From: Candidatus Sulfopaludibacter sp. SbA3
GTDB taxonomy: Bacteria > Acidobacteriota > Terriglobia > 20CM-2-55-15
NCBI GenBank assembly: GCA_945865815.1
Contig: CAMBFR010000002.1
Location: forward strand, 30,308-94,307
Length of the DNA stretch: 64,000 bases
Direction of reading: 5' to 3'
Part shown: positions 2,083 to 25,109 of the stretch, in pieces
How the letters are laid out: each line of letters begins with the position of its first letter
Position numbering within the stretch: position 1 is the first letter of the stretch
The notes under the pieces: model-generated
The model's database searches: none
What the model saw: the letters and a program-made list of their open reading frames with translations, nothing else
Told to the model about the DNA's origin: nothing
Position numbers and translations under genes: made by a program

Positions 2083-3759
2083 ATGAAAATCTTCGCGATT
2101 TACCCCAACGCCGATGGCTATGGAAGGATTCCCACCGGATTGGCGATCGTCATGACCGTGCTTGAGAACGCGGGCCACCAACTCGATCTTTTCGACACGA
2201 CGTTTCTTCACGACGCCAACCATGACAACGACACCCGCGAACGGGCTGGCTTGGTCAAGACGGTGGAGTCGTATGTAGGCCCACAGCTGACCAGTTGTGA
2301 CGGGATGCCTGTCCTCGCCTACGAGTCCCTGAGCCAGGACGCCGTCGACAATCTGCTACGCGAGAAGCTGAAGCTGTCCAATCCCGACGTCGTAATCATG
2401 AGCATAGTCGAGGACAACTACAACTGGGCCGACAGACTTCTTCGCGTCGTCAAGAACTTCCGGCGATCGATCCCGGTGATCGTGGGTGGGCCCACGCCCT
2501 CCGCGGCGCCTGAACGGCTGATCGAGAATCCGCACATCGATTACCTGGTGCAGGGCGAGGGTGATGAAGCTGTAGTCGAACTCTGCGACGTATTGGAACG
2601 CGGCCGGAGCGTCGAGAACGTTAGGAATCTCTGGCACAAAACGAAAGACGGCGGCATCCATTCCACACCGCTTCGACCGTTTATCAACCTGGACTCGAGT
2701 CCCTATCAGAACGTGGAATTGTGGGATCGGCGGCATTTCTACAAGCCGTATGACGGGAAGATTTACTGGACAGGGTATTTCGAAATGTCGCGCGGGTGTC
2801 CGTACCTGTGCACTTATTGCGTCAATCACACTATTCAGAGCAGCCTGAAGACCGCTGGAAAATACTTCCGCCGCAAGACCCCGTCCGTGGCGGTGAAAGA
2901 GATCAAATACCACAAGGAGAAATACGGCCTCAAACGGATCGTGTTCTGCGACGACAACTTCCTCCTCATGCCCGGTCCGGCATTCGAGGCTTGGGGGGCT
3001 GAATTCAAGGAGGCCTGGCTCCGCGAGGTCAACTTGCCATATTGGATTACCACGTCCGCTGACTTCATCCATCCGCAGACGCTCCAGCTGTTGGCGGAGA
3101 CGGGATGTGACGGAATCGGGTTGGGCGTCGAAGCCGGGGGCGAATGGTTCAAGCGAAACATCCTCAAGCGGCGGCTGACGAACGAGCGCACGGTCGAGAT
3201 CTTCAAGTTGGCCCACGACTACGGGATCCGAACCACCGCGAACATCATGATGGGATTCCCCGGCGAGTACGAAGAAGACATCTTCGAGTCAATCAAGCTG
3301 ATTCGGAGAGTTCAACCGAAGAGCTTCGACGTGTCGCTGGTCGCACCCTACGTGGGGACGGATATTCACACCGCCTGCGTAACGCTGGGTTTGATCGACG
3401 TCTTTGACAAACCCGGCTTCCGAGGCATGAGTACGGAAATCTCGTTCCGTCAGTATTCGACTATTCGGAATCCCAATATCAGCCGGGAGCGTATCTCCGA
3501 CCTCTACGACACGTTCGTCGACTACGTCAGCGGAAAGCTGCCGATTCCCGAAAAGTATCTCGCGCCGGCCCCTGGAGCCGACGATACGGCTCCTCCACGA
3601 GGCGACATGAGCCGGGACGTGGCCGAGGCGATCAAAGGGATCAAGGCGGATACCCGCCCCGAGGCAAAGGAGTTGCCGGATGTGGGGGTTGTCGCCATCG
3701 GAGGTCTCAGGACCGCATCAAGAACTGAGACTATGGCGCCGGTCGGAAGCGACGTCTGA
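2083..3759 (+). CDS. B12-binding domain radical SAM protein (class B, cobalamin-dependent)
   Basis: N-terminal B12-binding Rossmann-like region (VVIMSIVEDNY...IPVIVGGPTPS...VQGEGDEAVVEL). Radical SAM CxxxCxxC motif MSRGCPYLCTYC. GGAGG-like SD (aaggag) about 8 nt upstream of the ATG. Confidence 0.85.
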   Translation: MKIFAIYPNADGYGRIPTGLAIVMTVLENAGHQLDLFDTTFLHDANHDNDTRERAGLVKTVESYVGPQLTSCDGMPVLAYESLSQDAVDNLLREKLKLSNPDVVIMSIVEDNYNWADRLLRVVKNFRRSIPVIVGGPTPSAAPERLIENPHIDYLVQGEGDEAVVELCDVLERGRSVENVRNLWHKTKDGGIHSTPLRPFINLDSSPYQNVELWDRRHFYKPYDGKIYWTGYFEMSRGCPYLCTYCVNHTIQSSLKTAGKYFRRKTPSVAVKEIKYHKEKYGLKRIVFCDDNFLLMPGPAFEAWGAEFKEAWLREVNLPYWITTSADFIHPQTLQLLAETGCDGIGLGVEAGGEWFKRNILKRRLTNERTVEIFKLAHDYGIRTTANIMMGFPGEYEEDIFESIKLIRRVQPKSFDVSLVAPYVGTDIHTACVTLGLIDVFDKPGFRGMSTEISFRQYSTIRNPNISRERISDLYDTFVDYVSGKLPIPEKYLAPAPGADDTAPPRGDMSRDVAEAIKGIKADTRPEAKELPDVGVVAIGGLRTASRTETMAPVGSDV

Positions 3760-3970: not shown

Positions 3971-4711
3971 ATGGGCATGGGAACACCCATGGGACCATCG
4001 TTTGCATCAGATCCGAAGGGCGCACTCGAGTTCTTCAACGAATATGGCTATCAGATCGAGCCCGATGTCCACTCGGCCGCCGAGTGCAGGGAACTGATCG
4101 AGGCGTCCCACCGGCTCAGCGACTACGGCAACGGGAACTTGACGCCCGCGATGCAGGCGCACCGTTACGATCCCCGGTTCATGCTGGCCTTCTCAAATCC
4201 CAAAATCGTCTCGATCATGGAAATGCTCCTCTCCGGAAAGGTCAGCGGCCTGCAGACGGAGATTTTCTACTGCCCTCCGGGAACGCCCGGCTTCAGCCTG
4301 CACCAGGACAATTTTTACGCCGAAGTCGTGCGCGGGGGGTTCGCGACGGCGTGGTGCCCACTGCAAGACGTCACGTCCGAAAACGGAGGTCTGATTGTGT
4401 ACCCTCGCAGCCATCAACTGCCGCTGCTGCCGGTCGAACCGGTGCCTGACAGACCGGCGGCCACGCCCCACCAGGACCCTAACGCCGCGCAGATCCAATG
4501 CGTGCTGCCGACGGGCTTTGAGCCCGTAAACGCCGAGATTACGCTCGGCTGTGCGCTTTTCATCCACGGCTTTCTTGTACACGGATCGAATCAAAACCGC
4601 TCCACCGACCGCTACCGCCACGTCTTTCTGGGCACCTACGTGCGCCAGGGCGAGAAGTTCCGGGCGGGCAACTACGCCAAGCGCGAGGAAGTGAATGTCT
4701 ACCGAACCTAG
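3971..4711 (+). CDS. phytanoyl-CoA dioxygenase (PhyH) family Fe(II)/2-oxoglutarate-dependent oxygenase
   Basis: HQDNFY (HxD iron ligands) and distal FIHGFLVHGSNQN histidine, typical of the PhyH family; 246 aa. Confidence 0.65.
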   Translation: MGMGTPMGPSFASDPKGALEFFNEYGYQIEPDVHSAAECRELIEASHRLSDYGNGNLTPAMQAHRYDPRFMLAFSNPKIVSIMEMLLSGKVSGLQTEIFYCPPGTPGFSLHQDNFYAEVVRGGFATAWCPLQDVTSENGGLIVYPRSHQLPLLPVEPVPDRPAATPHQDPNAAQIQCVLPTGFEPVNAEITLGCALFIHGFLVHGSNQNRSTDRYRHVFLGTYVRQGEKFRAGNYAKREEVNVYRT

Positions 4712-5489
4712 GCTGGCGCTGGTAACGGGCGCGAGCGCAGGGATCGGACGCGAGATCACCCTGAGTTTGGCCCGTCAGGGAATGCGTGTGGTGGCCTGCG
4801 CTCGTGGAAAGCGGGCGCTGGCAGCGCTGGCACGCGAGGCGCAGGAGGAAAGCTTGCGCGTGGTGGTATTTAGCTGCGACGTTACCCGTGAAGCGGAGGT
4901 GCGAAAACTAGCCGTTTTCGTGCGACGGGAATGCGGTGGGGTCCTGGACGTGCTGGTGAACAATGCCGGCGGGCACAGGGCATTTGGAGAATTTGAAGAC
5001 CTCACGGTGGCTGACTGGGAGCAGGCGTACGCGCTGAACGTGTTGAGCGTGGTTCGGATGACGCGGGCCCTGCTGCCGCTGTTGCGCCGTTCGAAGCGGG
5101 CACCGGGCATCGTCAACCTGGCCTCCGCGGTTGCATTGTCCCCAGGTGCATTTCATCCGCACTACTCCGCAGCCAAGGCCGCGCTCCTGAATCTCTCAGT
5201 TTACCTGGCCAAGCGCTACGGACCCGAGGGTATCCGCGTGAATGCGGTCGCGCCGGGCACGATCACGGGGCCGGCCTGGGACCGCAACGTCGCCGCGTGC
5301 GCGAGAGACCGCCGCATGACTCATGCCGCGGCCGAACGGTTTTCGAGAGAGCGGCAACTAGCCAAGATCCCGCTGAGGCGGCTTGGCGAGGCTGCGGACG
5401 TGGCCGCGGCGGTGGCGTTCCTGGCTTCCGCGTCCGCCGCGTGGATCTCGGGTGTATGCATCCCGGTGGACGGAGGCGCCACACGATGA
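4695..5489 (+). CDS. SDR family NAD(P)-dependent oxidoreductase
   Basis: LALVTGASAGIGREI glycine-rich motif, NNAG, and YSAAKAA (YxxxK catalytic pair). Confidence 0.85.
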   Translation: MSTEPRLALVTGASAGIGREITLSLARQGMRVVACARGKRALAALAREAQEESLRVVVFSCDVTREAEVRKLAVFVRRECGGVLDVLVNNAGGHRAFGEFEDLTVADWEQAYALNVLSVVRMTRALLPLLRRSKRAPGIVNLASAVALSPGAFHPHYSAAKAALLNLSVYLAKRYGPEGIRVNAVAPGTITGPAWDRNVAACARDRRMTHAAAERFSRERQLAKIPLRRLGEAADVAAAVAFLASASAAWISGVCIPVDGGATR

Positions 5490-5549: not shown

Positions 5550-7535
5550 CTAATGATGCCCTGCCAGCTTGAACGGCTCATCAATCGTCTCCGCCGCGCC
5601 GCGAATCGAGTAAAGATAGGACCCGCTCTTGCTGCCGAACCATATCACTTCACGGCACCAATCTTGCCAGTTCTCCCAGCGGGAACTCGTGCGGTCAATG
5701 GAATAGGTGCACGAGGTGCGGACGAGCGGGACCTCTTCGCCACAGACCGCGGCGCGGTAGAACTCCCAGATGTTGTAATCGCTCTTCACGGTAACATCGG
5801 CTTCGCAGAAGGGCTGACGGATCAACGCAGCATTCAGGGCGACGGCGGCGCGTAGCAACTCCTCGGGCATCTCGGTTCCAGTCTCGCGTAAGTAGACACA
5901 CAGCCGACGCTCAGCTTCGGCATGGAAGGCTGTGAGTTTTCCCTCTACCGAGAGCTTGATCATCATGTATTCGTCGGCGGGCCAGTACACGCCCAGCCAT
6001 TCAGGGGACGGGCACAGCTCGAAGTCACCTCGCTGGATGGCGCGCGCCTTTTCATGGAAGAACTGAGCGATCTCGGCGAGCACTGGGAATTCCGCCGTCT
6101 TCTCATTCAGGAATACCTCCGCAAGCTCACGGTAAGAGCGGCCGTACTCCTTGTTTAACAGAATAAACGGAATCTGAAGCAGCTTGTTGAAGTGCAGGAG
6201 ATTCAACATCCACGAGAACGCGCGAGCACGCACCCAGTCCTCGCGTGACAGCGACGAGTTGGCGATCACCAGCTTCTGCATTTCCGGCACGTCGCCTTCG
6301 GGCCGTTCAATGAGGCCGCGGATGTAGACCACCTCGTTCTCGATCGTCACGATCCCGAAGCGCTTCTGGTACTCGGGATCGCCCATCTCTGCGTTGGGCA
6401 GGATCGACAAGTTCATAAAGAAAATGCGGTTGTGCTGCCCGCCCTCAATCAGCGTGGCTACGCCGTCCATGTACGAGTCACACGTTTCGCCGGGCAAGCC
6501 GAGGATGATATCGCTGTAAGTCGGGATTCGATCCGCAGTGAAGCGGCGCTGAAGTTCCTGAAACGACTTCAGTGAAATATTGTCGCGCTTGATGTTTTTC
6601 AACGTCTCGGTGTCCGTGCTTTGGAACGACAGCGTGATCGCCTTGTTGAGGCCGCTGGTGGCTAAAAGCTTTTGGACCTGATAGGCGTTTTCGGTGGCGT
6701 TCTTGGTGTTCTGGACGGACATGGCATGCGGATAACCATACTTCTGCTTGGCCTCGACCACGCACTTCGCAATTTCGAAATCACGTTTAAGGATGCCGAA
6801 GTTGGCGTCGGCGCAGAATACAAACTCAATCTTGTTCCGAGCGAACCAGTCGACCTCGCGCTCAAGGCGGGGCATGCCGAACGGCGAAACCTTACTTTGG
6901 ATGGCCGAGCCCCAGTCGCAGTATGTGCACGAGAAGGGGCAGCCCCGGTTGGTCTCCCAGATCGCGAGCCACTTCTCGGCGGGGTTGGCCTCGATCAACG
7001 GCTCGAAGACGCCGTTCAGGTATGGCGAGGTCTCTTCGGCATAATCGGGGATGCGCGGGTTCTTTTCGTTTCGTTGGTAAATTCCGTCAGCTTTCAGGAA
7101 GCTCAGGGACTTGATCTCTCCCCAGGGGCGTTCGCCAAGACCTTCCAGAATATTCAGAAAAGGTGTCTCGCCCTCTCCGTGCACGACGAGGTCGATGAAA
7201 GTGTTCTGACGAAGGAACTCCTCAGCGTGATCCGGCACTTGGGGGCCGCCGAAGACAATCACAGTATTGGAATTCAGTTCCCTGAGGCGCTTGGCGATCG
7301 CAAGAGAAAGGTTCACGTTCCAGACGTATACGCTGAAAGCCGCAACGTCGGCCTTGGCGATGGCTTGGGCGCCTTTCTCGATCGGGAGGCGGGAGTGGAG
7401 CGGCAGCAAGAACTCGTAGTCCTCGGGCCGTCTGGCACGGGCCTTGACGAACGACTGCAACAGACCCACGGAATAGGGCAAGTACCCCTGTCCAGAGTAG
7501 TCGTTGTTGATTTGAATCAGAGCGACGCTAACCAC
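5550..7535 (-). CDS. B12-binding domain radical SAM protein with extended C-terminal domain (661 aa, GTG start)
   Basis: N-terminal B12-binding region (IVFGGPQVP...VVHGEGETPFLNIL). Radical SAM core ETNRGCPFSCTYCDWG. Paralogous in architecture to 12918..14945. Confidence 0.85.
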   Translation of the reverse strand: MVSVALIQINNDYSGQGYLPYSVGLLQSFVKARARRPEDYEFLLPLHSRLPIEKGAQAIAKADVAAFSVYVWNVNLSLAIAKRLRELNSNTVIVFGGPQVPDHAEEFLRQNTFIDLVVHGEGETPFLNILEGLGERPWGEIKSLSFLKADGIYQRNEKNPRIPDYAEETSPYLNGVFEPLIEANPAEKWLAIWETNRGCPFSCTYCDWGSAIQSKVSPFGMPRLEREVDWFARNKIEFVFCADANFGILKRDFEIAKCVVEAKQKYGYPHAMSVQNTKNATENAYQVQKLLATSGLNKAITLSFQSTDTETLKNIKRDNISLKSFQELQRRFTADRIPTYSDIILGLPGETCDSYMDGVATLIEGGQHNRIFFMNLSILPNAEMGDPEYQKRFGIVTIENEVVYIRGLIERPEGDVPEMQKLVIANSSLSREDWVRARAFSWMLNLLHFNKLLQIPFILLNKEYGRSYRELAEVFLNEKTAEFPVLAEIAQFFHEKARAIQRGDFELCPSPEWLGVYWPADEYMMIKLSVEGKLTAFHAEAERRLCVYLRETGTEMPEELLRAAVALNAALIRQPFCEADVTVKSDYNIWEFYRAAVCGEEVPLVRTSCTYSIDRTSSRWENWQDWCREVIWFGSKSGSYLYSIRGAAETIDEPFKLAGHH

Positions 7536-7604: not shown

Positions 7605-8471
7605 TCAATCGCCCCTGAGCTTGCGACGGATCTCGACCTCGCTCGGCGTGACCTGCTTCACCGTCGTCCCCATCATCACGTCAATTTCCCTACACCGTTT
7701 TCGCAATATATCCATTGCGAGTACCTCGAGGCTCGATTTTTGGTCGGTTCCCCACATGTCGTGGGACAAAGTGATATGCCTTTCAACGACCATTGCGCCC
7801 AATGACACTGCCAGGACGGTCGGTTCGAGGTCCGGTTCGTGGCCGGAATAGCCGACAACGCAGCCATATCTTTCTTTGAGAAACGGGATCAACGAAAGAT
7901 TGAGTTCCGCCCGAGGCGTCGGATAACTCGAATTTGTGTGCAATACAACCGGCTTGACGCCTTTCGACATGATCAGATTAATTGCCTGGTCGACTTCCTT
8001 GAGGTCTGACATGCCGGTCGATACCACCAGAGGCCTTCCTGATGATGCTGCTTCAGAAACGAGTTCATGCTTTGTCAGCATAGCGGATGGGATCTTGAGG
8101 AACGGTACGTCGTAATCGAGCAAGAACTGAAGGCTGTTCATGTCCCAGATGGAAGCGGTCCAATCCAGTGGCTTTTCTCGGCAATAACGATCAATGTCGT
8201 CGTAATCGCTCTTGCTTAGTTCCACCCTTCGTTTGTATTCCAGATAGGTCATGTGGCCCCAGGGTGTGTCACACGGTACGCTTTTTTGGTGCTCCGGAAC
8301 TGCTTTGTCGGGATCGCGCTTTTGAAATTTGGCGCAATTCCAGTTGCAAGCATTGACGGCGTCAATGAGCTTTTTCGCGATACCAAGATCGCCGTTGTGG
8401 TTGATTCCGATCTCACCAACAAAATAAGGAACGGTTAGATTCTCAAAGATTGTATTCATTTGCTGCTCCAC
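7605..8471 (-). CDS. NeuB-family (N-acetylneuraminate synthase-like) 2-ulosonic acid synthase without SAF domain
   Basis: FVGEIGINHNGDLGIAKKLIDAVNACNWNCAKFQKR matches the NeuB/PseI/LegI TIM-barrel N-terminus. At 288 aa it is too short to carry the C-terminal SAF domain. Confidence 0.7.
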   Translation of the reverse strand: MEQQMNTIFENLTVPYFVGEIGINHNGDLGIAKKLIDAVNACNWNCAKFQKRDPDKAVPEHQKSVPCDTPWGHMTYLEYKRRVELSKSDYDDIDRYCREKPLDWTASIWDMNSLQFLLDYDVPFLKIPSAMLTKHELVSEAASSGRPLVVSTGMSDLKEVDQAINLIMSKGVKPVVLHTNSSYPTPRAELNLSLIPFLKERYGCVVGYSGHEPDLEPTVLAVSLGAMVVERHITLSHDMWGTDQKSSLEVLAMDILRKRCREIDVMMGTTVKQVTPSEVEIRRKLRGD

Positions 8472-8687
8472 TCCTTACCAGGCGGTCCATCCGCCATCCA
8501 TTCTGAGAACGGTACTGCTGCTATGGCGACAAACATCTCCAACCAGAATTCCACGAGCGGTAATAATTCGCGAACATTCATGATTCGTCTGAGAGGCGTG
8601 TGGCGAGAATCAGATTCGGAAAAAGACGCATCCGGTGCGTTTGTAACTGCGCCAGGCTCAATGAATTTTACTCGAAGAGTGAATCGT

Positions 8688-9914
8688 TTACCGTGATGAC
8701 TCCAGCTTACGAATAGTCTTATGCAGACAATCAGCTTTTTGCTTCGCCAGACGGAGGTCGCGGTAGTTCGTCTTGAATTGCATCAGTTTTGGCTGAATCC
8801 GCTCCGCCACCGGGCACATTCCCTGGTGGTAGACCACGTCATTATAGATGTACGGGCATCGCCGAGCGAATCGCCGACTTGCCATCACTGGTTCCAAATA
8901 AGGAACTGACCATGCACCGTAGATCCCATCCCCACCCATTTCTTTGTAAGTACGGCGAAAGTCTTCCCACGTAACTCCGATTGCTTCCAAGCCTTCGTAG
9001 CGAACGCCCAGTGTGTAATACGAGTGCGACAGTCCCTCTGGAACCTCCTGAGGAATCAGGTAATTACAGTCCGCGATTATATCGAGGAAAAACTGCGCTG
9101 ACTTTTGTCGCAGTTCGACAAGTTCGTCCAGTCTTTCCAGTTGCCCGAGCGCGACAGCGGCATTGAATTCCGATAAGCGATAGTTCCAGCCAAGCTCATC
9201 GTGGCGCTTATAGTGAGGATTCTGGAAGACATCTTCGTTAAGCCGAACCCGGCCCTCACCGGCTCCGAGGTTCTTAAAACCATGACCACCGATCTTGCGT
9301 ACCAATTCGGCACACTTCTCGTCGTTGGTAATGATCATGCCGCCCTCGCCGCAGGAAATATGCTTTGTGTTCTCGAAGCTATAGCTTGCGAGATGACCGA
9401 TGGTTCCAGTCATTCTACCTTTGTAAAGGCTGAGGAAGCACTGGGCGTTGTCTTCGATAACCGTCAGACCGTGTTTTTTGGCGATTGCGAGCAAGGGATC
9501 AAGGTCGGCGGGGAGTCCATAAAGCGAGACGGCGATGATCGCCTTGGTTTTTGATGTTATTTTCCTCGCGACGTCCGCCGGATCAATATTGAACGTACGC
9601 GGATCAATGTCAGCGTAAACGGGAATCGCATTGGCATGCAACGTCGCTGTTGTATCCATGATGACGGTCAACGCGGGAGAAATTACCTCCTCTCCCGGCT
9701 GGACGCCCACCGCTTCGATCGCTGCATGTAGCGTCGATGTTCCTGAATTAAACGCAATGGCGTACCGGGCCCCAAACTTCTCAGCGAATTGCCGTTCCAA
9801 TACCTGGTTCCAGCTGCCGGCCGTTGCTGACCATGACTTGGCTTCCAGAACTCGCTTCAAATACTTATATTCATTCCCTAAATATTTCGGTGGGTTGAGC
9901 CGTGACGTTTTCAT
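8688..9914 (-). CDS. DegT/DnrJ/EryC1/StrS family PLP-dependent sugar aminotransferase
   Basis: FNSGTSTLHAAIEA..., SFENTKHISCGEGGMIITND (PLP-lysine region) and ELGWNYRLSEFNAAVALGQLERLDE, typical of the family. Confidence 0.85.
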   Translation of the reverse strand: MKTSRLNPPKYLGNEYKYLKRVLEAKSWSATAGSWNQVLERQFAEKFGARYAIAFNSGTSTLHAAIEAVGVQPGEEVISPALTVIMDTTATLHANAIPVYADIDPRTFNIDPADVARKITSKTKAIIAVSLYGLPADLDPLLAIAKKHGLTVIEDNAQCFLSLYKGRMTGTIGHLASYSFENTKHISCGEGGMIITNDEKCAELVRKIGGHGFKNLGAGEGRVRLNEDVFQNPHYKRHDELGWNYRLSEFNAAVALGQLERLDELVELRQKSAQFFLDIIADCNYLIPQEVPEGLSHSYYTLGVRYEGLEAIGVTWEDFRRTYKEMGGDGIYGAWSVPYLEPVMASRRFARRCPYIYNDVVYHQGMCPVAERIQPKLMQFKTNYRDLRLAKQKADCLHKTIRKLESSR

Positions 9915-11200
9915 GAATTGGGCTTCAGGCGTAATTTTGTTTTTGATTTCTGATTTGCCAGGAACTGCTCCTGCAGGTGCTGGTTGATTCGAACGATTTC
10001 AGGGTTCAAGTCAAGATACGTGATGACATCACGCAGGGTGAAGTCCTGAGCCCCGTGCTCCTGAAAATGCCCCACTATCTTCTCAAAGAACCGGAAATCA
10101 TCTGGGTAATCCAGGGTCATACGGATTTCCGGACGCTTGAATATGTCTGCAACATTTTGAAGCTTCTCGGTTCGGAATCGCCCGCTGTCTGTAAAGTAGA
10201 CCCACATCATTTCGGTATCGTCCGTATCCTTAATACGACAGACGATTTCAAGAGCGGACGTCTTAACCCCGTAAGTGAACGACCCCACCGCAAGCCCTTC
10301 GGATTCGATAAAATCCGCGCCAGACGAGCGGTATTGAGCAAAAGCAAGGTCAATCAACTCCGGTTCGCAGAACGGATCGTCCCCATCTGCGGTTACGAAA
10401 AACTCGACGCTGAATTGCTCCGCTGCACCGCGCCAGCGCTCAAGTTTGTCTTGCTCGCTGCCGCGAAAACATTCGATGCCCTCTGCTCTGGCAATGTCGC
10501 AGAGGACGCCATCTTCCTGATTCGTTGTCGTGCACAGAACGATAGTATCAGCGAGCCTGCTCTTTTTCAGGCGACGGATAAGGAACTCGATTACCGACTG
10601 TCCATTAAGGTCAAGGAAGCACTTGCGGGGTAGCCGAGTGGAACCAGTGCGAACGGTTACGAAAATGGCGGTCCGTTTCTTATTCGTCGCACCGTATTCA
10701 AGGCCCAGCAGTTCAGCGGCAATTTCCCGCACAACTCCGCCCCCTCCGGGCACGGATAGGATTACTTCGGATATAGAGCGCACCGCAGCATGTGCGTCCG
10801 CCGGGCAGATCGCATGACCGGCAGCCTTCATTGCCTGTAGATCATTAAGGTCGTTTCCCACATACCAAGTGGAATTTATGGGCACCTTTAACCGGTGGCA
10901 CGAATCCTCCAGGGCTTTACGCTTGTCTCCTGCCCCCTGCACACACTCGACCCCCAGCTTCTTGCAACGTTCGGAAACAACGGGATTCTTCTCGGTCGAA
11001 AGCACCAGGCATTGTATTCCGGCTTGCTGAAGCATTTCGAAACCTAGCCCGTCGGCGCGGTTGCAGGTGACGGCCTCCATGCCGTTCTCCATCACAAGCA
11101 CCCGGTTGTCTGTTAGCACCCCATCGAAATCGAACACCAGTAGTTGGGGGCGGTCCGGGATTCGGTTCCTACCGGCTGACTTGGTTGCCTGTTCACTCAT
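9911..11200 (-). CDS. fusion protein: KdsC-like HAD phosphatase (N-term) + acylneuraminate/3-deoxy-ulosonate cytidylyltransferase (C-term)
   Basis: N-term LLVFDFDGVLTDNRVLV...GNDLNDLQAMKAAG (HAD motifs I and IV, KdsC/Kdn-9-P phosphatase type). C-term AIFVTVRTGSTRLPRKCFLDLNGQSVIEF (SpsF/NeuA-type cytidylyltransferase). ATGA overlap with the upstream gene. Confidence 0.7.
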   Translation of the reverse strand: MSEQATKSAGRNRIPDRPQLLVFDFDGVLTDNRVLVMENGMEAVTCNRADGLGFEMLQQAGIQCLVLSTEKNPVVSERCKKLGVECVQGAGDKRKALEDSCHRLKVPINSTWYVGNDLNDLQAMKAAGHAICPADAHAAVRSISEVILSVPGGGGVVREIAAELLGLEYGATNKKRTAIFVTVRTGSTRLPRKCFLDLNGQSVIEFLIRRLKKSRLADTIVLCTTTNQEDGVLCDIARAEGIECFRGSEQDKLERWRGAAEQFSVEFFVTADGDDPFCEPELIDLAFAQYRSSGADFIESEGLAVGSFTYGVKTSALEIVCRIKDTDDTEMMWVYFTDSGRFRTEKLQNVADIFKRPEIRMTLDYPDDFRFFEKIVGHFQEHGAQDFTLRDVITYLDLNPEIVRINQHLQEQFLANQKSKTKLRLKPNS

Positions 11201-11365: not shown

Positions 11366-12466
11366 TTACCCTGGAACCACCTGCCGACTCCTGGATTCGT
11401 CCAAATAGCTGTGCAGCTTGACCTGATCACACCGCTCGGCACACTTGTGACCTGCAGGAAATGTGCCGGTGATATGCATACGCCGAAACTCTTTATACTT
11501 TTCACCGTTCCAGATGTCTTCCAAGGACATGTCTTTAATGTTTCCGAACGAAAGTTCGGCGTCATAGTCCTGAGTACAAGGCACCACATCTCCGTTAGCC
11601 ATCACTGTCAAAGAGGTCCATGGGAATTCACAGTACTGCTGTGCATAGTGCGACCTGTTTTCCAGGGCTTCATCTTCCTCGTGATACCAGCGGTTATCCT
11701 GACTCTTCACATAGGCGAATACATCTTTACCTTGCCAGAGATCGAGAAAATCCATGTGCATCTGGCGCGAAATGTCGTCAACTCTGAGCTCGATCATGGT
11801 AGGCGCAATAATGGTCTTATAGCCCTTGGCTGCTTTCATGTCGATGACATCTAGTATCGTCTTAAAGGCTTGCTCAAAATTGGCATGCTTTCCTCGAATC
11901 TGCTTGATGGCCTCATCGTCAAGCGCATCAATGGAGAATTTCAACACGCCAAGGCCCGCATGCATGAGTCGTTCAGCCTTCTCAACAGTAATGTTTGCGG
12001 GTACGCAGGAAAAATAGGTGGGGATACCCAGGTCTGTACAGGCCTGCACTCGGTCGAAAATATTCTTGTCCACCAGAGGCTCACCATAACCATGCAAGAT
12101 CAAATGCTTGGCAACTATATGAAAATAGAAGGCATTCTCTGAGCGCTGCTCAAAGGTAATTCCATAGGACCCTTTGACGAATTCCCAAAAACTTTCAAGC
12201 TTTTTGTCGTCATGAACCTGCGATTGACTAATTATTCTCGAAAATTCCTGACTTTCCAGCGTGGTGATCGACCTCTTCATCAAACTGGTACGCGGGCACA
12301 TCACGCACGTCATGTTGCAGGCGTTCGTGGTTTCCACATTGAAAATGTACGGCTTGGTGTTGCGCAGGGCCTCCATTTCCCTTTCCACCTCTTCAAAGCT
12401 CACATCATTATTAAGAATGCGCTCCTTCAGGTGATGCGTCGCCATGAAAAAATCAATGTCAAACAT
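11366..12466 (-). CDS. radical SAM protein with Cys-rich C-terminal (SPASM-like) region
   Basis: ETTNACNMTCVMCPRT (CxxxCxxC). The C-terminal VVPCTQDYDAELSFGNIKDMSLEDIW...HKCAERCDQ contains additional Cys clusters consistent with an auxiliary Fe-S (SPASM/twitch) domain. Confidence 0.7.
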   Translation of the reverse strand: MFDIDFFMATHHLKERILNNDVSFEEVEREMEALRNTKPYIFNVETTNACNMTCVMCPRTSLMKRSITTLESQEFSRIISQSQVHDDKKLESFWEFVKGSYGITFEQRSENAFYFHIVAKHLILHGYGEPLVDKNIFDRVQACTDLGIPTYFSCVPANITVEKAERLMHAGLGVLKFSIDALDDEAIKQIRGKHANFEQAFKTILDVIDMKAAKGYKTIIAPTMIELRVDDISRQMHMDFLDLWQGKDVFAYVKSQDNRWYHEEDEALENRSHYAQQYCEFPWTSLTVMANGDVVPCTQDYDAELSFGNIKDMSLEDIWNGEKYKEFRRMHITGTFPAGHKCAERCDQVKLHSYLDESRSRQVVPG

Positions 12467-12917: not shown

Positions 12918-14945
12918 TTGAAAACGAGGGTCTACCTCGCTGACTTAACACACACTCGAAACGGCATAATGGCTTTGACCTTTCCTATCGGCACAGCGTT
13001 CGTAGCCGCTTATGCGAAACATGTATTAGGCGACGATTTTGAATTCCACCTCTTCAAATTTCCTGAACGTTTGAGTCAGGCAATCAGTGAAAAGCCTCCA
13101 CGCGTGCTGGCACTGTCCAATTATTCCTGGAACCTGGAACTCGGCTACAAAATAAGCGCCTGGGCCAAGCGGCAAGATCCCAAGCTCATCGTCATTTTCG
13201 GGGGTCCTAACTTTCCTGTTTCGACTGATGAAAAGGCGAAATTCCTTCGGCGAAGATCGGCCATAGATGTCTATGTGGAAAACGAGGGTGAAGTGGGATT
13301 TGCCGATTTGCTCACCAACCTGGAGAATTACAATTTCGACATCGCCGCCTTTAAACGCTCCCACCAGGCGGTTGGGAACTGCACGTATCTTGACGGCAAT
13401 CAAGTAATCCAAGGCGGAATAGATCGAATTCGAGACGTCAACGCCATCCCCTCCCCTTATCTGACCGGAATTTTGGATGAATTCTTTGAATTCCCTTTGA
13501 CTCCCATGATCGAAACGACCCGGGGCTGCCCCTTCAGTTGCTCGTTTTGCGCCGATGGCCTTCCTTCAAAGAGCAAAGTAACCGCCTTTCACCACGATAG
13601 AGTTCGGGAGGAACTGAATTACATTGCCGAGCGCATCAAGAATAGTAATGAGCTTCTGATTACCGACCTGAATTTCGGGATGTATAAACAAGATTTGGAA
13701 ACGGCTCAATTCATTGCGGATATTCAAAGCAAGTTCAACTGGCCTGTGCTCATCAAGGCATCCGCAGGAAAAAATCTACCCGAACGGATCATTGAAGCCG
13801 CATCCCTTCTCAAGGGGTCGTGGGTAATCGGATCCGCAATCCAGTCTTCAGACCAGGAAGTCCTGAAGAATATCAAGCGCGCCAACATATCCGTGGACGC
13901 ATATAGAGACTTCCTGAAACTGATGAACAACCTGGACAAGAAAGCCTCGACTTTCAGCGAGATAATACTGGCGTTACCCGGGGATTCGAAGAAAAAGCAC
14001 TTCGAGTCTCTGCGATACGCGATCGACAGCGGCGTGAACCTCGTGAAGTCGTATCAGGCGATGTTGCTCATGGGAACGGACATGGCATCCCAGGCAACCC
14101 GTGTTCAGTTTGGACTCATGACTAAATTCAGAATCATGGCTGGCGGTGTCGGGGTCTATCAGTTTGGCGAAGAAGAAATTCGGGTGGCAGAAATCCAGGA
14201 GATTATTGTCGGCAGTAAGGACATGTCTTTTGAAGATTACGTGTCCTGCCGCATCATGAGCCTTATCATTGAGACGTATTACAACAACGCCCCGTTCGGG
14301 GAGATTCTTGCCGCCATGAAGGTTATGGGGCTACCGGTGTTCGATTTCCTGGTCTATCTTAACGAGCACGAGGAGTTGTATACGCCAAGAATCAAAGAAA
14401 TAGTCAAGAGGTTCGTTGATGGCACGACCAGCAACTTATACGATTCTCACGAAGAAGCGGAGTCGCTGGGCCTGAGCCCGGACCTGTTTGACCGGTATCT
14501 CTCTGGTGATCTGGGCTTCAACGAAGCGCTGGAATGTAAAGCACTCCTCTATTTTGAGATGGAGCAGACTCTGGCTGTGCTGCTGACCGCTTTAAAAATG
14601 TATCTCGCAGAGAAGGATTTGCTGACTGAAACCATCCAGGACTATTTTGATCAGCTCGGTGATTTTATTCTGTGCAAGAAGAAAGAGATCAACGAGACAG
14701 AGTTGGTTATAGAAAGACTCTTCAATTATGATTTCGGGGCAATCGATGCTCTGAATTATCAAGTCGATCCCCGAAGTATCCAACGAGCAAGCGAGGGCAT
14801 TCGCTTCACGTTCTTCCACGACCAAGAGCAAAAAAATTACATTAACCAGTCCCTCAGCCTCTATAAGAACCATCCCGGTGGAATCAGCAGGGCGCTTTAC
14901 GTGCAGAATCTGAAAAAGATGTACAGGACTTTTCAGCGCCTGTGA
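12918..14945 (+). CDS. B12-binding domain radical SAM protein with extended C-terminal domain (675 aa, TTG start)
   Basis: B12-binding region (LIVIFGGPNFP...YVENEGEVGFADLL). Radical SAM core ETTRGCPFSCSFCADG. GGGAGG SD 6 nt upstream of the TTG at 12918. Confidence 0.85.
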   Translation: MKTRVYLADLTHTRNGIMALTFPIGTAFVAAYAKHVLGDDFEFHLFKFPERLSQAISEKPPRVLALSNYSWNLELGYKISAWAKRQDPKLIVIFGGPNFPVSTDEKAKFLRRRSAIDVYVENEGEVGFADLLTNLENYNFDIAAFKRSHQAVGNCTYLDGNQVIQGGIDRIRDVNAIPSPYLTGILDEFFEFPLTPMIETTRGCPFSCSFCADGLPSKSKVTAFHHDRVREELNYIAERIKNSNELLITDLNFGMYKQDLETAQFIADIQSKFNWPVLIKASAGKNLPERIIEAASLLKGSWVIGSAIQSSDQEVLKNIKRANISVDAYRDFLKLMNNLDKKASTFSEIILALPGDSKKKHFESLRYAIDSGVNLVKSYQAMLLMGTDMASQATRVQFGLMTKFRIMAGGVGVYQFGEEEIRVAEIQEIIVGSKDMSFEDYVSCRIMSLIIETYYNNAPFGEILAAMKVMGLPVFDFLVYLNEHEELYTPRIKEIVKRFVDGTTSNLYDSHEEAESLGLSPDLFDRYLSGDLGFNEALECKALLYFEMEQTLAVLLTALKMYLAEKDLLTETIQDYFDQLGDFILCKKKEINETELVIERLFNYDFGAIDALNYQVDPRSIQRASEGIRFTFFHDQEQKNYINQSLSLYKNHPGGISRALYVQNLKKMYRTFQRL

Positions 14946-16168: not shown

Positions 16169-17647
16169 TTAGGGCGATATGCTCTCAGACTCACTCGCCG
16201 TCCTTCCCAACCTCAGGTAAGCGTAGAAGCCAACCAGGGCTACGAACAGAATCAGCGAAAGCATATACGCTGCTTTCACCGTGTCCTGGTACGACTCATC
16301 ATTTGCCATTGTAAGCAACTGGGGACACAGGGCAAACAGTGGCAGGTTATTCGAATTCCCGGTCCAGTACGTACCGGTAGTTGGAAGCGCCCAGAGCCAT
16401 GAGTTCCGAACGAGCATGGCGAAAAGACCCAGCAATAGAACCCATTTGACAGCCACACGAAGGCTTGCGTTTCCGATTCCTTCGAAGACCTGATCAAATC
16501 CAGAGGCAGCGAGCAATACGAGATATAGGATAAGGAATATCATCATGCGGGCCGGATATTGATCCAATGCCGAAATAGGGATCACATACTGGAGAAGTAG
16601 CCAGGCCACCTGGAGGACGGACGCGAGGAGACAAACAAGGATAACCAGCATTGCACAGACAAATGGTTTTGCCCTTAACGGATTAGGCGTTTGTGTTCCA
16701 CTCCACGCTGGATAAGCAATGGCTACGGCAATGAGGGCGAGCCCGAGCCAGCCAAGATATGCTGTGCGCTCCCACTCAATACCATCTGCGATAACCGGGT
16801 ACGGAACCAATAATGATTGAAACAACTGGGGGATAATTGTGAATGGATAAGTAAAGCTACCGAAGCCGCTGGATATCAGACGTCCGCTTTCGGCATACCC
16901 GCTGTAGAAGAGAACCGGGATGAACAGGTACGCAGCCACTGAGAACGCGATTCCGAATCCAAGTCCCACCCATGGAAGCTGGCGACGGTGAAACAGAAAA
17001 ATGCAGGTAGTGCCCAGTAGAATGGGTTGAAGAACGTGAAGGGCACCGAACGAAATAATCAGGACCAATAATCCAGCCCACTCCAGTGTCAGCATCAGCT
17101 TCTGGCGGCGGTTAGCGTGCTCCGACTCCGCAAAGTTTGCCCAAAGCCAAAACACCCAGGGGATAAGGAAATAGCCTCCCAGATCTCCGATATGTCCAAC
17201 ACCAGCCTTGGCGCTGTAAAAGCCGTTAAACACAAAGAGGACTACTGCGAAAGTCGCGGCAGCGACAGAAAGATTCAGCCTGTGAATCCACCTCATAATG
17301 CCCAGGAAACCGATCGAATAAAGCAACACGACGTGCAGGACAATCCACTGAGAAACGCGGAGCCATCCAAGAGCAACGAGGTCTGGTGAAGTGAGTATCC
17401 ACGGTGCAGCCAGAAGACGAAAATTGTTCAGATAACTGCCCCGGACGCTTTCGTCACAAAAGAACGATGCGTGATAAGGAATCTGACCTGTACGAATGGC
17501 TGTCTGGGTGACCGTCAATATTGACTCGTACAGCATCCAGTCAAAAGTGTGCGCATTGCCCCAGTCCAAAAACAGCATCCAGTAGACTGCTCCAAGAATG
17601 TAAATACTCAGAAGCCAGATCCATTTGGAGTCAAGCTGGCGCAGCAC
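16169..17647 (-). CDS. polytopic integral membrane protein, putative GT-C-type glycosyltransferase
   Basis: 492 aa with more than 10 hydrophobic helices and aromatic-rich loops. No soluble-domain motifs. Placed between two polyprenyl-P GT2 genes. Confidence 0.45.
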   Translation of the reverse strand: MLRQLDSKWIWLLSIYILGAVYWMLFLDWGNAHTFDWMLYESILTVTQTAIRTGQIPYHASFFCDESVRGSYLNNFRLLAAPWILTSPDLVALGWLRVSQWIVLHVVLLYSIGFLGIMRWIHRLNLSVAAATFAVVLFVFNGFYSAKAGVGHIGDLGGYFLIPWVFWLWANFAESEHANRRQKLMLTLEWAGLLVLIISFGALHVLQPILLGTTCIFLFHRRQLPWVGLGFGIAFSVAAYLFIPVLFYSGYAESGRLISSGFGSFTYPFTIIPQLFQSLLVPYPVIADGIEWERTAYLGWLGLALIAVAIAYPAWSGTQTPNPLRAKPFVCAMLVILVCLLASVLQVAWLLLQYVIPISALDQYPARMMIFLILYLVLLAASGFDQVFEGIGNASLRVAVKWVLLLGLFAMLVRNSWLWALPTTGTYWTGNSNNLPLFALCPQLLTMANDESYQDTVKAAYMLSLILFVALVGFYAYLRLGRTASESESISP

Positions 17648-17697: not shown

Positions 17698-19254
17698 TCA
17701 CAGCGCCGCGGCGTCATGATGCTCGTGATGAGTCCTTCGGCCACTTTCGCCTTTCTTGCGACGAACAATGGCGAACAGGCGCTCTTCGAAAACAGTATCT
17801 GATCTGTGCAGGGAATAGTTCCGAACGGAACGCAGAACATGGCTGGGATGGAGCAGGTAGCTTAGGCCATACGAGAGAGACATACCCAACAGACGATAGA
17901 AAGAGATTTCCAGTGGGCCGACATTTTCGCAGTAGTTTGTATGCTGCTTCAGATCCATGAACGTCATCAGGGACCGAAAATATGCACGATTCATATCTGC
18001 GATGGCGCCGGTCTTACGAAGATACTCGTACAGTTCCGAGCCAGGGTAAGGAGAATAATTATAGATAGCCGTGTCGTCGACGCCGCTCCACGCAAATTTC
18101 ACGGCGCACCACACGGTCTGGAGCATGTCGCGGCGAGTTTCATGCGGAAAACCGATAATCAGGTTGCACTTGACAAATATTCCATTCGATTTCGCATGCT
18201 TGATGGATTCGAAAAGACGAGGAAGCGCAACCTTCTTCTTGATCAGCTTCAACGTTCGAACTGAGCCGCTTTCCGGAGCGTACGTAACGTTCATACATCC
18301 GGACGTAGCCATTTCCCGTAACACTTCTGAATCCATTGCTTCGGAACGGGTGCCGCTTGGCAACTGCCACGTAACCTTGAGATCGCGACTCTTCATCTCT
18401 TTGCAGAATGCGAGAATCCAGTCTCTCTTGATAATCGCCGTCAGGTCAAAAAAGTCGATGTTGTCGGCCTTATACGTTCTTACATAGTGCTCAATCTCGT
18501 CGACTACCATCCGGACGTTACGCATCAGGTATCGAGTAGTCCACATCAAAGGACTGGAGCAGAACGTACACTGGTAGGGACAGCCCCGGGTGGCCAGGAT
18601 TGGCATACTGCGACCGCGCTCTACTCCGTGCCCCTGCCCGGCCTTGAAGTAAGGCTCGAGATTGAACAAGTGCCAGGCTGGCCGTGGAATTTCATCAACG
18701 GCCCTGATTCGGGTGCGCTCTGGATTCACAACCATGTTTCCGCTTGCATCGAGATACCGAATTCCGTTGACGTCAGAGAGTGAGATCTTGCCATCAAGCC
18801 AGTCTGCCCAGTCGACGATGGTTTCATCGCCTTCTCCGACCGCTACAAAATTCACAGCAGGAAAACTTCGGAGCACATACTCACCAGCCGCAGTTGCGTG
18901 CTCCCCTCCCAGGATTATGGGAACATCGGGAAACCGATCGCGGATGGCGCTGATCATGTCTTCGATATGCGGCCAATCCTGGGAAAACATCGCCGAAATG
19001 CCAATGCCATCTGGCCTCTCGGTGATTCGCTCGACAATGCGGGGGATCGAAAGACCGCGGTACCTGACACGGGAGTCGTAGGAGACTCCTATGTTTTCAA
19101 TGTCTTCGCCAAGCGCATCCAGGTTTGAAACCTGATGCCCACTCTCGATCAGATTGGCGCTCAAGTAAGCGAGAGCTAAAGGCATGGTGACAGGAGCGCT
19201 ATAGCTGGAACTGGAAAACACCGCAGGGGGCCTGATAAGTAAGATACGACTCAT
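17698..19254 (-). CDS. B12-binding domain radical SAM protein
   Basis: B12-binding region (PIILGGEHATAAGEYVL...VAVGEGDETIVDWA). Radical SAM core ILATRGCPYQCTFCSSP. 518 aa. Confidence 0.85.
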   Translation of the reverse strand: MSRILLIRPPAVFSSSSYSAPVTMPLALAYLSANLIESGHQVSNLDALGEDIENIGVSYDSRVRYRGLSIPRIVERITERPDGIGISAMFSQDWPHIEDMISAIRDRFPDVPIILGGEHATAAGEYVLRSFPAVNFVAVGEGDETIVDWADWLDGKISLSDVNGIRYLDASGNMVVNPERTRIRAVDEIPRPAWHLFNLEPYFKAGQGHGVERGRSMPILATRGCPYQCTFCSSPLMWTTRYLMRNVRMVVDEIEHYVRTYKADNIDFFDLTAIIKRDWILAFCKEMKSRDLKVTWQLPSGTRSEAMDSEVLREMATSGCMNVTYAPESGSVRTLKLIKKKVALPRLFESIKHAKSNGIFVKCNLIIGFPHETRRDMLQTVWCAVKFAWSGVDDTAIYNYSPYPGSELYEYLRKTGAIADMNRAYFRSLMTFMDLKQHTNYCENVGPLEISFYRLLGMSLSYGLSYLLHPSHVLRSVRNYSLHRSDTVFEERLFAIVRRKKGESGRRTHHEHHDAAAL

Positions 19255-24120: not shown

Positions 24121-24122
24121 TC

Positions 24123-25109
24123 TCAGGCTTCGCTCAGCTGATCTAACAGATCCCTATGCTCACGGTACCAGTCAATGGTCCTCTGTAAGCCTTCTTCCAG
24201 GTCCACGGTTGGTTGCCATCCCAAATGCATTCTTGCCAGTTTGTTGGTTCCACTCTGAAAAAACATCTCGCCAGTCCTGTATGGAATCGCGCCAACGTGG
24301 ATGCTCGCAGGCTGGCCCAGAAGCCGATAAATGAGTTCGACTGCGGATCGCATTCTTGTTCCCTGCCCGCTGCATAGATTCAAGACGTTCCCGACCGCGG
24401 TATCGGATCCGGCGGCAAGCAGAACACCCTCGACAGCATCATCTATGTAGACAAGATCTCGCTCCTGCTCCCCGCTCGTCATGTTCATGTCTCTGCGAAG
24501 CAGACCGTTGACGATCGCACTGGGAACCAGACGAGTCGCGCGTTCCCAAGGGCCATACGGCGTAAACAGACGAATTGAGATAACCTTCAGCCCAGTTGAT
24601 CGGCCGATGGACTGTGCCAGGATTGTGCCGGCGGCCTTCGAGGCGCCATAGATTGTGGTCGGGCAGAGGCTCGATTCTTCCGAAAGTGCGCTACCCTCTC
24701 CGTACTCAAAACTTGAACCGAAATGAATGAGCCTCTCCACCCCGGCGTTGGCGCAGCCGTTGGCGATTGCAAACGTCCCAAATACGTTGGTGTGAAGTAC
24801 CGACTCGCTGGGCGTAGATGGCACGACTCCCGCTGCAGCCGCATGAAAGACTATCTGCGGCTTTGCAGCATCAAGTATTCGCGCAACACTCCCTATATCG
24901 GAACAATCACCTTCGACGACATGGAGTTCACGAGCAATATCGGCTATCCGGAAGCGATGCGAAGCCGGCCGTACCAGGACGGTTACATCTGCACCCGCAC
25001 CAAGCAGTCTCCGCGCTAAGTGTGAGCCTACGAAGCCGGTTGCGCCTGTTACGAAGACTCGACATCCTCTCCAGTCCCTCGTCGGGCGCTGGCTCACCAA
25101 ACCATCCAT
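24123..25109 (-). CDS. NAD-dependent epimerase/dehydratase family protein (candidate CDP-hexose 4,6-dehydratase or reductase step)
   Basis: VFVTGATGFVGSHLARRLL and YGASKAA (YxxxK). Position between rfbF and rfbH homologues. Confidence 0.7.
   Translation of the reverse strand: MDGLVSQRPTRDWRGCRVFVTGATGFVGSHLARRLLGAGADVTVLVRPASHRFRIADIARELHVVEGDCSDIGSVARILDAAKPQIVFHAAAAGVVPSTPSESVLHTNVFGTFAIANGCANAGVERLIHFGSSFEYGEGSALSEESSLCPTTIYGASKAAGTILAQSIGRSTGLKVISIRLFTPYGPWERATRLVPSAIVNGLLRRDMNMTSGEQERDLVYIDDAVEGVLLAAGSDTAVGNVLNLCSGQGTRMRSAVELIYRLLGQPASIHVGAIPYRTGEMFFQSGTNKLARMHLGWQPTVDLEEGLQRTIDWYREHRDLLDQLSEA

Follow-up and report, generated by a model that had tools for sequence, protein, structure and literature searches.

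A widespread SAF-less NeuB cassette that probably makes a second, amino-modified keto-acid sugar in Candidatus Sulfopaludibacter

Bacteria cap their flagella, capsules and O-antigens with nonulosonic and related keto-acid sugars, which influence how hosts and phages recognise them. To our knowledge, the characterised bacterial routes to these sugars start from nucleotide sugars (Neu5Ac, Leg and Pse), use KdsA (Kdo) or are represented by a single Bacteroides example (Kdn). Kdo8N synthesis in Shewanella relies, to go by the PDB names, on a KdnB oxidase and a KdnA aminotransferase that act on Kdo, and in 2-deoxystreptamine synthesis the radical SAM enzyme BtrN operates together with a DegT-family aminotransferase (BtrS/R). 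The Kdn pathway of Bacteroides thetaiotaomicron runs via KDN-9-P, with a synthase (BT1714), a phosphatase (BT1713) and a cytidine monophosphate (CMP)-Kdn synthetase (PMC6200933), and a Kdn pathway is also described in Prymnesium parvum (PMC6200933). Around 30% of NeuB-family sequences, from environmental organisms, do not have the SAF domain, and their role was left unassigned (PMC8208679). Here we describe a gene cassette built around such a SAF-less NeuB homologue in a 64,000-nucleotide stretch of contig CAMBFR010000002.1 from Candidatus Sulfopaludibacter sp. SbA3, hereafter the window. It is an intact copy of a widespread, uncharacterised cassette that probably makes a second amino-modified CMP-keto-acid sugar via a phosphorylated intermediate. 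With moderate confidence, we favour reading it as an operon-like run for a CMP-activated, amino-substituted 3-deoxy-ulosonic acid, apart from the canonical pathway encoded elsewhere in the window.

The window is a single long glycan-biosynthesis island, and its minus strand carries nearly all genes. Read 5' to 3' on that strand, the cassette comprises a radical SAM gene, a HAD-cytidylyltransferase fusion, a DegT aminotransferase and the NeuB-like synthase, and is followed by a B12-binding radical SAM gene:

11366-12466, minus strand: radical SAM protein with a SPASM-type C-terminal domain, 366 residues (Pfam Radical_SAM and SPASM)
9911-11200, minus strand: HAD/cytidylyltransferase fusion, 429 residues in one uninterrupted open reading frame (Pfam HAD and CTP_transf_3)
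8688-9914, minus strand: DegT-family pyridoxal phosphate-dependent aminotransferase, 408 residues (Pfam DegT_DnrJ_EryC1, E 7e-80)
8460-8687, minus strand: gap of 228 bp between the DegT and NeuB-like genes
8475..8677, minus strand, within the gap: frameshifted remnant (last ~67 codons) of a short-chain dehydrogenase/reductase (SDR), found by tblastn with the 224-residue SDRs of two related loci, L088 and L095
7605-8459, minus strand: SAF-less NeuB-family synthase, 284 residues (Pfam NeuB only)
5550-7535, minus strand: B12-binding radical SAM protein of the KedN5-like C-methyltransferase family (Pfam B12-binding and Radical_SAM)

The domain content and the fusion can be read directly from the window. 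Pfam agrees with the original prediction in placing a SPASM-matching radical SAM protein, a DegT protein and a bifunctional HAD/cytidylyltransferase beside the NeuB-like gene, and with E values of 4e-61, 7e-80, 1e-17 and similar the genes are certainly real. The co-directional run opens with the radical SAM gene, from which 165 nt separate the fusion gene; the stop of the fusion gene and the DegT start overlap by 4 nt. The B12-radical SAM gene, which is co-directional with the NeuB-like gene and begins 69 nt past its stop, matches the NCBIfam KedN5 subfamily below its cut-off (E 9e-79) and probably encodes a tailoring enzyme. A scan for promoters and terminators returned sites no more numerous than chance. 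Two features had been missed in the original prediction: the SDR remnant between the DegT and NeuB-like genes, and the modular, widespread nature of the cassette, which is no peculiarity of this locus.

The synthase matches the Pfam NeuB model (PF03102) over positions 1-241 of 241 (E 4e-61). It had first been described as a 288-residue protein without SAF; the Pfam scan indeed gives no SAF match, and the length needs correction. Translation could begin at a GTG at 8471 (288 residues) or at an ATG at 8459 (284 residues), the latter with AAGGAG 11 nt upstream. By exact look-up, the 284-residue product is on record and the 288-residue product has no match. Because of the upstream AAGGAG, this record and the agreement with homologue lengths, the ATG is the more likely start. 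The full-length TIM-barrel match and the alignment of conserved residues place the protein in the NeuB family: the metal-binding His pair and the PEP (phosphoenolpyruvate)-binding Lys, Ser and Asn of Neisseria meningitidis NeuB fall in family-invariant columns. It is 31% identical to the canonical, SAF-containing NeuB of the window (48147-49196) and scores below the cut-offs for N-acetylneuraminate/legionaminate synthase (TIGR03569, 217.9 vs 399.65 bits) and pseudaminate synthase (TIGR03586, 154.5 vs 340.25 bits). An AlphaFold model (predicted local distance difference test, pLDDT, 88.8) superposes on NeuB structures, the SAF-less 6NCS among them, with template modelling (TM) scores of 0.80-0.82. 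The protein is presumed to condense PEP with an aldose phosphate.

Its match to NeuB_NnaB ends at position 274 of the 329 in that model, as would be expected if a frameshift had removed the SAF domain and left a truncated NeuB. This explanation is refuted by the surroundings and relatives of the gene. There is no space for a SAF domain downstream, because the complete B12-radical SAM gene starts so close to the stop. A search with the synthase returned at least 8000 proteins at E <= 1e-10, and all of the 120 best listed contain the NeuB domain only, most of them 281-287 residues long (range 266-306). A SAF-less homologue of 290 residues from Leptospira has, moreover, been solved (6NCS).

The N-terminal HAD domain of the fusion protein (Pfam residues about 19-165; about nt 10706-11146) carries the motifs FDFDGVLTD (the DxDxT nucleophile) and GNDLND. 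KdsC/YrbI models match it at E 3.5e-28 and 3e-26 and a KDN-9-P phosphatase model at 1e-24, whereas the phosphoglycolate phosphatase model reaches only 1.8e-8 over a partial stretch, so the KdsC-type assignment proposed at the outset holds. Its scores lie below the cut-offs of TIGR01670 (KdsC/YrbI Kdo-8-P phosphatase, 92.2 vs 106.95 bits), NF007019 (KdsC/YrbI, 98.5 vs 208) and NF058599 (KDN-9-P phosphatase, 87.5 vs 180); as judged from these models, it is a relative of KdsC/YrbI and no called member. The best PDB match of residues 19-173 is 3MMZ (E 2e-33), followed by KdsC/KDN9P phosphatases, and BT1713 (3E81, E 1.4e-21) is among the best structures. All 18 PDB matches are KdsC/KDN9P-type phosphatases or unannotated HAD hydrolases of 162-211 residues. 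The motif, the size of ~150 residues, the absence of a cap insertion and the cap-less KdsC/KDN9P-type structures that lead the PDB matches place the domain among cap-less (C0) KdsC-type HAD phosphatases, the architecture that the original prediction had suggested looking for.

The cytidylyltransferase part matches CTP_transf_3 over residues 179-327 (E 1.4e-17; 64.7 bits vs a cut-off of 22.6). The complete SpsF-type domain spans residues about 176-407 (about nt 9980-10675), and its closest structure is the cytidylyltransferase 6OEW (E 9e-21). It falls well below the best KdsB model (49.4 vs 255 bits) and PseF (18.1 vs 205.7), and its homologues carry the name SpsF at JGI. The HAD-CTP order is rare, being found in 8 of the 120 best homologues listed; the others are stand-alone proteins of about 255 residues.

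The DegT protein has the lysine motif SFxxxK...GEGG and lies below the cut-offs of LegC (206.8 vs 420 bits), PseC (198 vs 423.5) and all other NCBIfam equivalogs. Orthologues in loci of many phyla are 63-72% identical to it, and that of L095 is 83% identical; on this similarity it is placed in an orthologue group that is specific to the cassette and highly conserved. Among PDB entries, the 2-deoxy-scyllo-inosose aminotransferase 2C7T covers most of the protein (residues 16-347, E 1e-49), more than any other match, and KdnA (5K8B, E 1e-43) and NtdA (E 2e-25) are also matched.

The gap between the DegT and NeuB-like genes holds the remains of a further enzyme. In the closest relatives found, L088 and L095, the gene order is HAD-CTP, DegT, a 224-residue SDR and NeuB. 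Identity to the window is 79% for the synthase and 70% for the fusion protein in L088, and 78%, 76% and 83% for synthase, fusion and DegT in L095. Residues 158-203 of their SDRs match window positions 8677..8540 with 46-52% identity, and residues about 191/201-224 match 8579/8549..8478 in a different frame, ending in ...MDGGWTAW-stop. This stop falls just ahead of the synthase ribosome-binding site, as it does in the relatives. The match of SDR to gap has an E value of 2e-11, and none of 200 shuffled SDR queries matched the gap. By this alignment ~157 SDR codons have been deleted from the window, and the remnant documents a recent exchange or loss. No radical SAM gene was found in the retrieved DNA of L088 or L095.

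A frameshifted SDR remnant, in a locus that already has another complete nonulosonic acid pathway, is what one would see if loss of the SDR had broken the pathway and the other genes were becoming pseudogenes or falling silent. We think decay of this kind improbable. The four surviving proteins are full length and retain nearly all family-invariant positions (56/58, 129/132, 20/20 and 56/57), with 0-3 conservative differences each, within the leave-one-out range of family members; because these differences are few and conservative, the cassette is not apparently decaying. A candidate replacement oxidant is, in addition, encoded directly upstream.

The cassettes of L088 and L095 adjoin Wzm/Wzt ABC-transporter genes, the Wzt with a C-terminal carbohydrate-binding domain, and that of L088 also lies beside MptE-like (Maf-type) genes. 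Because of these neighbours, the sugar may cap an O-polysaccharide chain or modify flagellin. No Wzm/Wzt-type transporter was recognised within the window.

To place the locus among its relatives, species-representative genomes were scanned with the synthase, which gave 80 loci. These include Methanoregula, Omnitrophota, Nitrospirae, Planctomycetes, Lachnospiraceae, Bacteroides fragilis, Treponema primitia and candidate-phyla bacteria, with synthases 55-65% identical to that of the window in the close clade. Two synthase homologues from unrelated metagenomic genomes have HAD, CTP_transf_3, NeuB, radical SAM/SPASM and DegT together in their neighbourhood, with HAD and cytidylyltransferase as separate genes in both. 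The open reading frames of the 80 loci were clustered and the recurrent clusters annotated; the counts below are for the 49 close loci whose flanks extend at least 4 kb in both directions. The conserved synteny defines a core of HAD, synthase and cytidylyltransferase, the last either SpsF-like (about 255 residues) or NeuA-like (about 240 residues). Of the 49 loci, 42 have a KdsC-like HAD gene with the SAF-less synthase and 45 have a cytidylyltransferase. The first of these counts, together with HAD/cytidylyltransferase fusions in both orders, supports the original argument that the presence of a phosphatase implies a phosphorylated sugar as the partner in condensation.

Around the core, the aminotransferase and the oxidoreductase vary. 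The former is a DegT protein 63-72% identical to that of the window, a more distant DegT or a class III enzyme; the latter is a short SDR, a close KdnB homologue (PDB 5K8C, E 7e-101; about eight loci) or a BtrN-like radical SAM protein. The two tend to be present or absent together (Fisher p 2e-5, uncorrected for phylogeny):

aminotransferase and oxidoreductase both present: 34 of 49 loci
both absent: 9 of 49 loci
aminotransferase only: 3 of 49 loci
oxidoreductase only: 3 of 49 loci

Fusions also link the steps of the cassette: the window shares HAD-CTP with a few relatives, other genomes have the CTP-HAD order, and DegT-CTP is also found. The reverse order, a NeuA-type cytidylyltransferase with a C-terminal KdsC-like HAD, occurs in L010, L017, L036, L043, L045, L054, L055, L060 and L067, and DegT/SpsF-type cytidylyltransferase fusions of 661-664 residues are represented by P0164 and P0205. 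Two possible anchors to described pathways were discarded. KdnA is absent from the best PDB matches of the DegT proteins that adjoin KdnB homologues, and orthology of these proteins with KdnA was rejected for this reason. The HAD of the Bacteroides fragilis locus is only moderately similar to BT1713 (E 7e-38).

The intact gene upstream of the fusion offers an oxidant for the window. Its product has conserved radical SAM cysteines (CX3CX2C, one more Cys, and C-x17-C-x44-C-x3-C). In a full SPASM domain, two auxiliary clusters are bound by seven or eight conserved cysteines, with CX2CX5CX3C among them; among 27 cluster and 30 subfamily members we find four conserved C-terminal cysteines and no CX2CX5CX3C, although the Pfam SPASM model matches nonetheless (E 2.8e-18). 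The spacing C-x17-C-x44-C-x3-C resembles that of the single auxiliary cluster of BtrN. By its cysteine pattern the protein is thus twitch-like with one auxiliary cluster, and not full SPASM. In having CX3CX2C together with a single four-Cys auxiliary cluster domain, it conforms to the BtrN-like motif. In a sequence search of the PDB, BtrN also ranks first and is the one strong match (E 3e-11). When 26 relatives are combined into a profile, three stretches align to BtrN: the CX3CX2C region, the strand resembling GxGEPLL and the domain of the auxiliary cluster. The predicted fold (pLDDT 87.5) retrieves BtrN first (E 7e-12), followed by SuiB, DesII, SkfB and BlsE. A tight radical SAM clade sits inside 26 cassettes, each of which also has an aminotransferase. 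The best candidate role for the window protein is that of a dehydrogenase in this pathway replacing the lost SDR, an assignment that we prefer without regarding it as secure. It is possible that the protein acts instead as a dehydratase or epimerase; there are precedents among radical SAM enzymes in AprD4-like and DesII-like chemistry.

The genomic contexts of its subfamily bear on this assignment. Seven were sampled, the window included, and four of them are CMP-ulosonic-acid contexts (the window, L092, L090/L091 and L086). In L092 the radical SAM gene, whose product is 76% identical to that of the window, adjoins a CTP-HAD fusion, a SAF-less NeuB and a GT29-like transferase, and in L090/L091 the subfamily gene adjoins an SDR and a CTP_transf_3 gene. 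The GT29-family gene of L092 (4400-5119), of the eukaryote-type sialyltransferase kind and on a metagenomic contig, directly follows the SAF-less NeuB, which suggests that the L092 product is handled like sialic acid. L092 further has a PhyH fragment (2048-2290) between the closest radical SAM homologue and the CTP-HAD/NeuB pair, and in the window a PhyH-family dioxygenase and an SDR lie beside the cassette on the opposite strand (3971-5489, plus strand). Because PhyH flanks the cassette in the window and recurs in L092, it may be a recurrent tailoring enzyme.

We propose the following order of reactions. The SAF-less NeuB homologue would join PEP to an aldose phosphate to give an ulosonate phosphate, from which the KdsC-type HAD domain would strip the phosphate. 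An oxidoreductase, formerly the SDR and now probably the BtrN-like radical SAM protein, would turn a hydroxyl into a carbonyl, which the DegT aminotransferase would convert to an amine. The SpsF-type domain would then form the CMP-sugar, and the B12-radical SAM protein and other nearby enzymes may decorate it, possibly by methylation. These reactions and their order are what we infer, together with the aldose phosphate (mannose-6-phosphate, arabinose-5-phosphate or another) and the carbon that is aminated; by analogy with KdnB, our guess is that amination falls on the hydroxyl freed by the phosphatase.

The order could also be the reverse, with the oxidoreductase and DegT acting first on a sugar phosphate, the NeuB homologue condensing an amino-sugar phosphate and the HAD domain acting last. 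In kanosamine synthesis NtdC and NtdA act on glucose-6-phosphate, and the PDB matches of the DegT protein include enzymes with non-nucleotide substrates, namely NtdA and the 2-deoxy-scyllo-inosose aminotransferase. Such an order would also explain a synthase without SAF, a domain that in canonical NeuB helps sugar binding (PMC8208679), and the order of the genes in no way fixes that of the reactions. We nevertheless consider amination before condensation unlikely. Core-only loci, with HAD, synthase and cytidylyltransferase and without an aminotransferase, exist, and therefore the synthase can use an unaminated substrate; one oxidoreductase variant is, in turn, closely homologous to KdnB, which acts on finished, free Kdo.

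The same core-only cassettes would fit a simpler product, a nitrogen-free Kdn- or Kdo-like CMP-sugar, with the DegT and radical SAM proteins serving other nucleotide-sugar pathways of the island. There are many other sugar genes in the window, and the radical SAM subfamily also occurs in NDP-hexose contexts in which the retrieved DNA has no SAF-less NeuB gene. Against this, the DegT start overlaps the stop of the fusion gene, synteny between the synthase and DegT orthologues (63-83% identical) extends across phyla, DegT-cytidylyltransferase fusion proteins exist, and aminotransferase and oxidoreductase co-occur in the cassette. We therefore hold a nitrogen-free product to be doubtful and retain the amino-substituted ulosonic acid as the preferred reading.

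Several observations weigh against that preference. The radical SAM protein of the window is 34-42% identical to the clade embedded in cassettes and 52-76% identical to a separate subfamily of its own, and orthology with the embedded clade was rejected for this reason. Three of the seven subfamily contexts (L085, L087 and L089) are of the NDP-hexose type just mentioned, and an SDR (adh_short) directly adjoins the radical SAM gene in four of the six contexts from other loci. Because the subfamily neighbours differ in this way, both the tie of the radical SAM protein to the pathway and its type of reaction are uncertain. L020, L026 and L058 carry both a radical SAM gene and an SDR, so the two are no strict alternatives, and shared ancestry does not enter the co-occurrence statistic. 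With the SDR lost, the amination branch may instead be broken here. No conserved precursor gene (e.g. for arabinose-5-phosphate isomerase) was seen beside the synthase, the downstream genes being mostly singletons. Finally, the literature search found no characterised enzyme of this cassette type, and all reactions are for that reason deduced.

At least 13 other loci have B12-radical SAM genes next to their SAF-less synthase. The window has four of them within 18 kb around the cassette, all KedN5-like and below the cut-off (2083-3759, plus strand; 5550-7535, minus; 12918-14945, plus; 17698-19254, minus). CMP-activated ulosonic acids with an extended carbon backbone have been seen by mass spectrometry in Magnetospirillum (bioRxiv 10.64898/2026.04.20.719630), and C-methylation of the sugar is a possible link between such compounds and these genes. 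More broadly, and tentatively, the SAF-less NeuB clade may mark a widespread amino-ulosonic route in bacteria and archaea that is free of nucleotide sugars and has, beside an aminotransferase, an exchangeable oxidant: a KdnB-type oxidase, an SDR or a BtrN-like radical SAM dehydrogenase, the last working independently of oxygen; an SDR-to-radical-SAM replacement would be caught here in progress, and C-methylation by B12-radical SAM enzymes could give higher-carbon CMP-ulosonic acids.

The rest of the island encodes further sugar pathways. A canonical set of legionaminic/neuraminic type, which by its gene content is separate from the SAF-less cassette, lies at 38339-52049, and a cytidylyltransferase of another kind lies closer to the cassette:

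25094-25861, minus strand: glucose-1-phosphate cytidylyltransferase, above equivalog cut-off
38339-39598: LegC, above NCBIfam cut-off (477 bits)
39519-40502: LegB, just under NCBIfam cut-off
40499-41575: PtmE-like CBS-nucleotidyltransferase
42778-44344: HisH/HisF-like amidotransferase pair
46966-48150: NeuC, above NCBIfam cut-off
48147-49196: NeuB with SAF, above NCBIfam cut-off
51252-52049, minus strand: NeuA-like CTP_transf_3 cytidylyltransferase, an open reading frame of 265 residues masked by a longer overlapping one

Because a separate set with NeuB+SAF, NeuC, LegC, LegB and a NeuA-like protein is present, the original proposal that the locus makes two CMP-activated keto-acid sugars is a reasonable reading. 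The original count of four or more cytidylyltransferases is correct or on the low side: there are CTP_transf_3 domains at 9911-11200, 27975-28751 and 53678-54901, the NeuA-like one at 51252-52049, and the glucose-1-phosphate cytidylyltransferase at 25094-25861. The real start of the NeuA-like protein is probably MKSRSEV..., and the N-termini of the open reading frames at 50443-51396 and 51992-53185 are probably over-extended. A 234-residue FabG-like SDR at 52984-53688 (minus strand) is likewise masked by a longer overlapping frame. The domain at 53678-54901 (minus strand) is a weak match covering the first 120 model positions only, fused to a C-terminal cupin domain.

Further modules lie to either side, all on the minus strand. 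The glucose-1-phosphate cytidylyltransferase and two dehydratase/epimerase genes (23014-25861) indicate a CDP-hexose branch in the island. The genes at 27975-31807 include a cytidylyltransferase that resembles KdsB and exceeds one KdsB subfamily cut-off, a 330-residue protein without a Pfam match, an HpcH/HpaI pyruvate aldolase, a homologue of transaldolase/fructose-6-phosphate aldolase and a SIS-domain isomerase, and are possibly a third keto-acid sugar module. An AroB-related putative sugar-phosphate cyclase (TIGR04425, above cut-off), a GFO/IDH/MocA oxidoreductase and a SIS-domain protein at 57948-60637 hint at a carbocyclic or otherwise unusual sugar-derived unit. Four open reading frames (16169-17647, 33790-35445, 36261-38375 and 61358-62743) have no Pfam match at E <= 0.01, and that at 41577-42785 has a single weak hit at chance level. 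These five Pfam orphans, of 402-704 residues and embedded among sugar genes, are candidates for unrecognised glycosyltransferases or polymerases.

Literature searches found no description of the cassette or of any of its enzymes. Its most interesting aspects are its wide distribution, its interchangeable oxidants, a radical SAM protein among them, and the SDR remnant; the underlying principles are already known, and we regard the cassette as a solid, testable lead and not as a first-order surprise. Were the proposal true, the SAF-less NeuB sequences, roughly a third of the family, would include a clade with a defined role, as synthase of a compact, horizontally mobile cassette that turns a sugar phosphate of central metabolism into CMP-activated and often aminated ulosonic acids. 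A sugar acid would join the short list of substrates of radical SAM dehydrogenases, and glycan chemists would gain a small gene set for making new CMP-sugars.

The closest described systems each share part of this scheme. The superfamilies of synthase and cytidylyltransferase are those of SpsE/SpsF and of canonical NeuB, LegI and PseI, but the canonical synthases possess SAF and use non-phosphorylated 6-carbon sugars freed from nucleotide sugars. The animal NANS/NANP/CMAS pathway, in which NANS retains the antifreeze-like (SAF) domain, resembles the cassette in joining PEP to a 6-phospho sugar, followed by dephosphorylation and CMP activation. The C-terminal domain of mouse CMAS (3EWI) is also a match, with E 3e-11. 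In contrast to the animal arrangement, the window phosphatase lies N-terminal to an SpsF-type, not a NeuA-type, cytidylyltransferase. Fusion of phosphatase-like domains is a feature common to the window, the animal pathway and the NeuB-phosphatase fusion of Leptospira (PMC3438082).

The BtrN and BtrS(R) pair shares with the cassette a single-auxiliary-cluster radical SAM protein paired with a DegT-family aminotransferase, on a substrate without a nucleotide handle, and a BtrR-type aminotransferase gives the longest alignment to the window DegT. The differences are considerable: structural alignment to BtrN gives 17% identity, the window protein is about 100 residues longer, its dehydrogenase activity is predicted from homology, and its subfamily adjoins an SDR more often than an aminotransferase.

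The Kdn pathway has the same backbone of a NeuB-family synthase expected to act on a phosphorylated aldose, a cap-less KdsC-type HAD and a CTP_transf_3 cytidylyltransferase. It differs in that the window HAD lies below the KDN-9-P phosphatase cut-off and that the cassette has an extra aminotransferase and oxidant. For these additions the logic of Kdo8N synthesis is the nearest parallel: a hydroxyl of the finished ulosonic acid is oxidised, a DegT-family enzyme transaminates it and CMP activation follows. The likeness extends to the KdnB homologues of the related loci and to the match of KdnA to the window DegT. In contrast to Kdo8N synthesis, the window has no KdnB and its synthase is of the NeuB type instead of the KdsA type.

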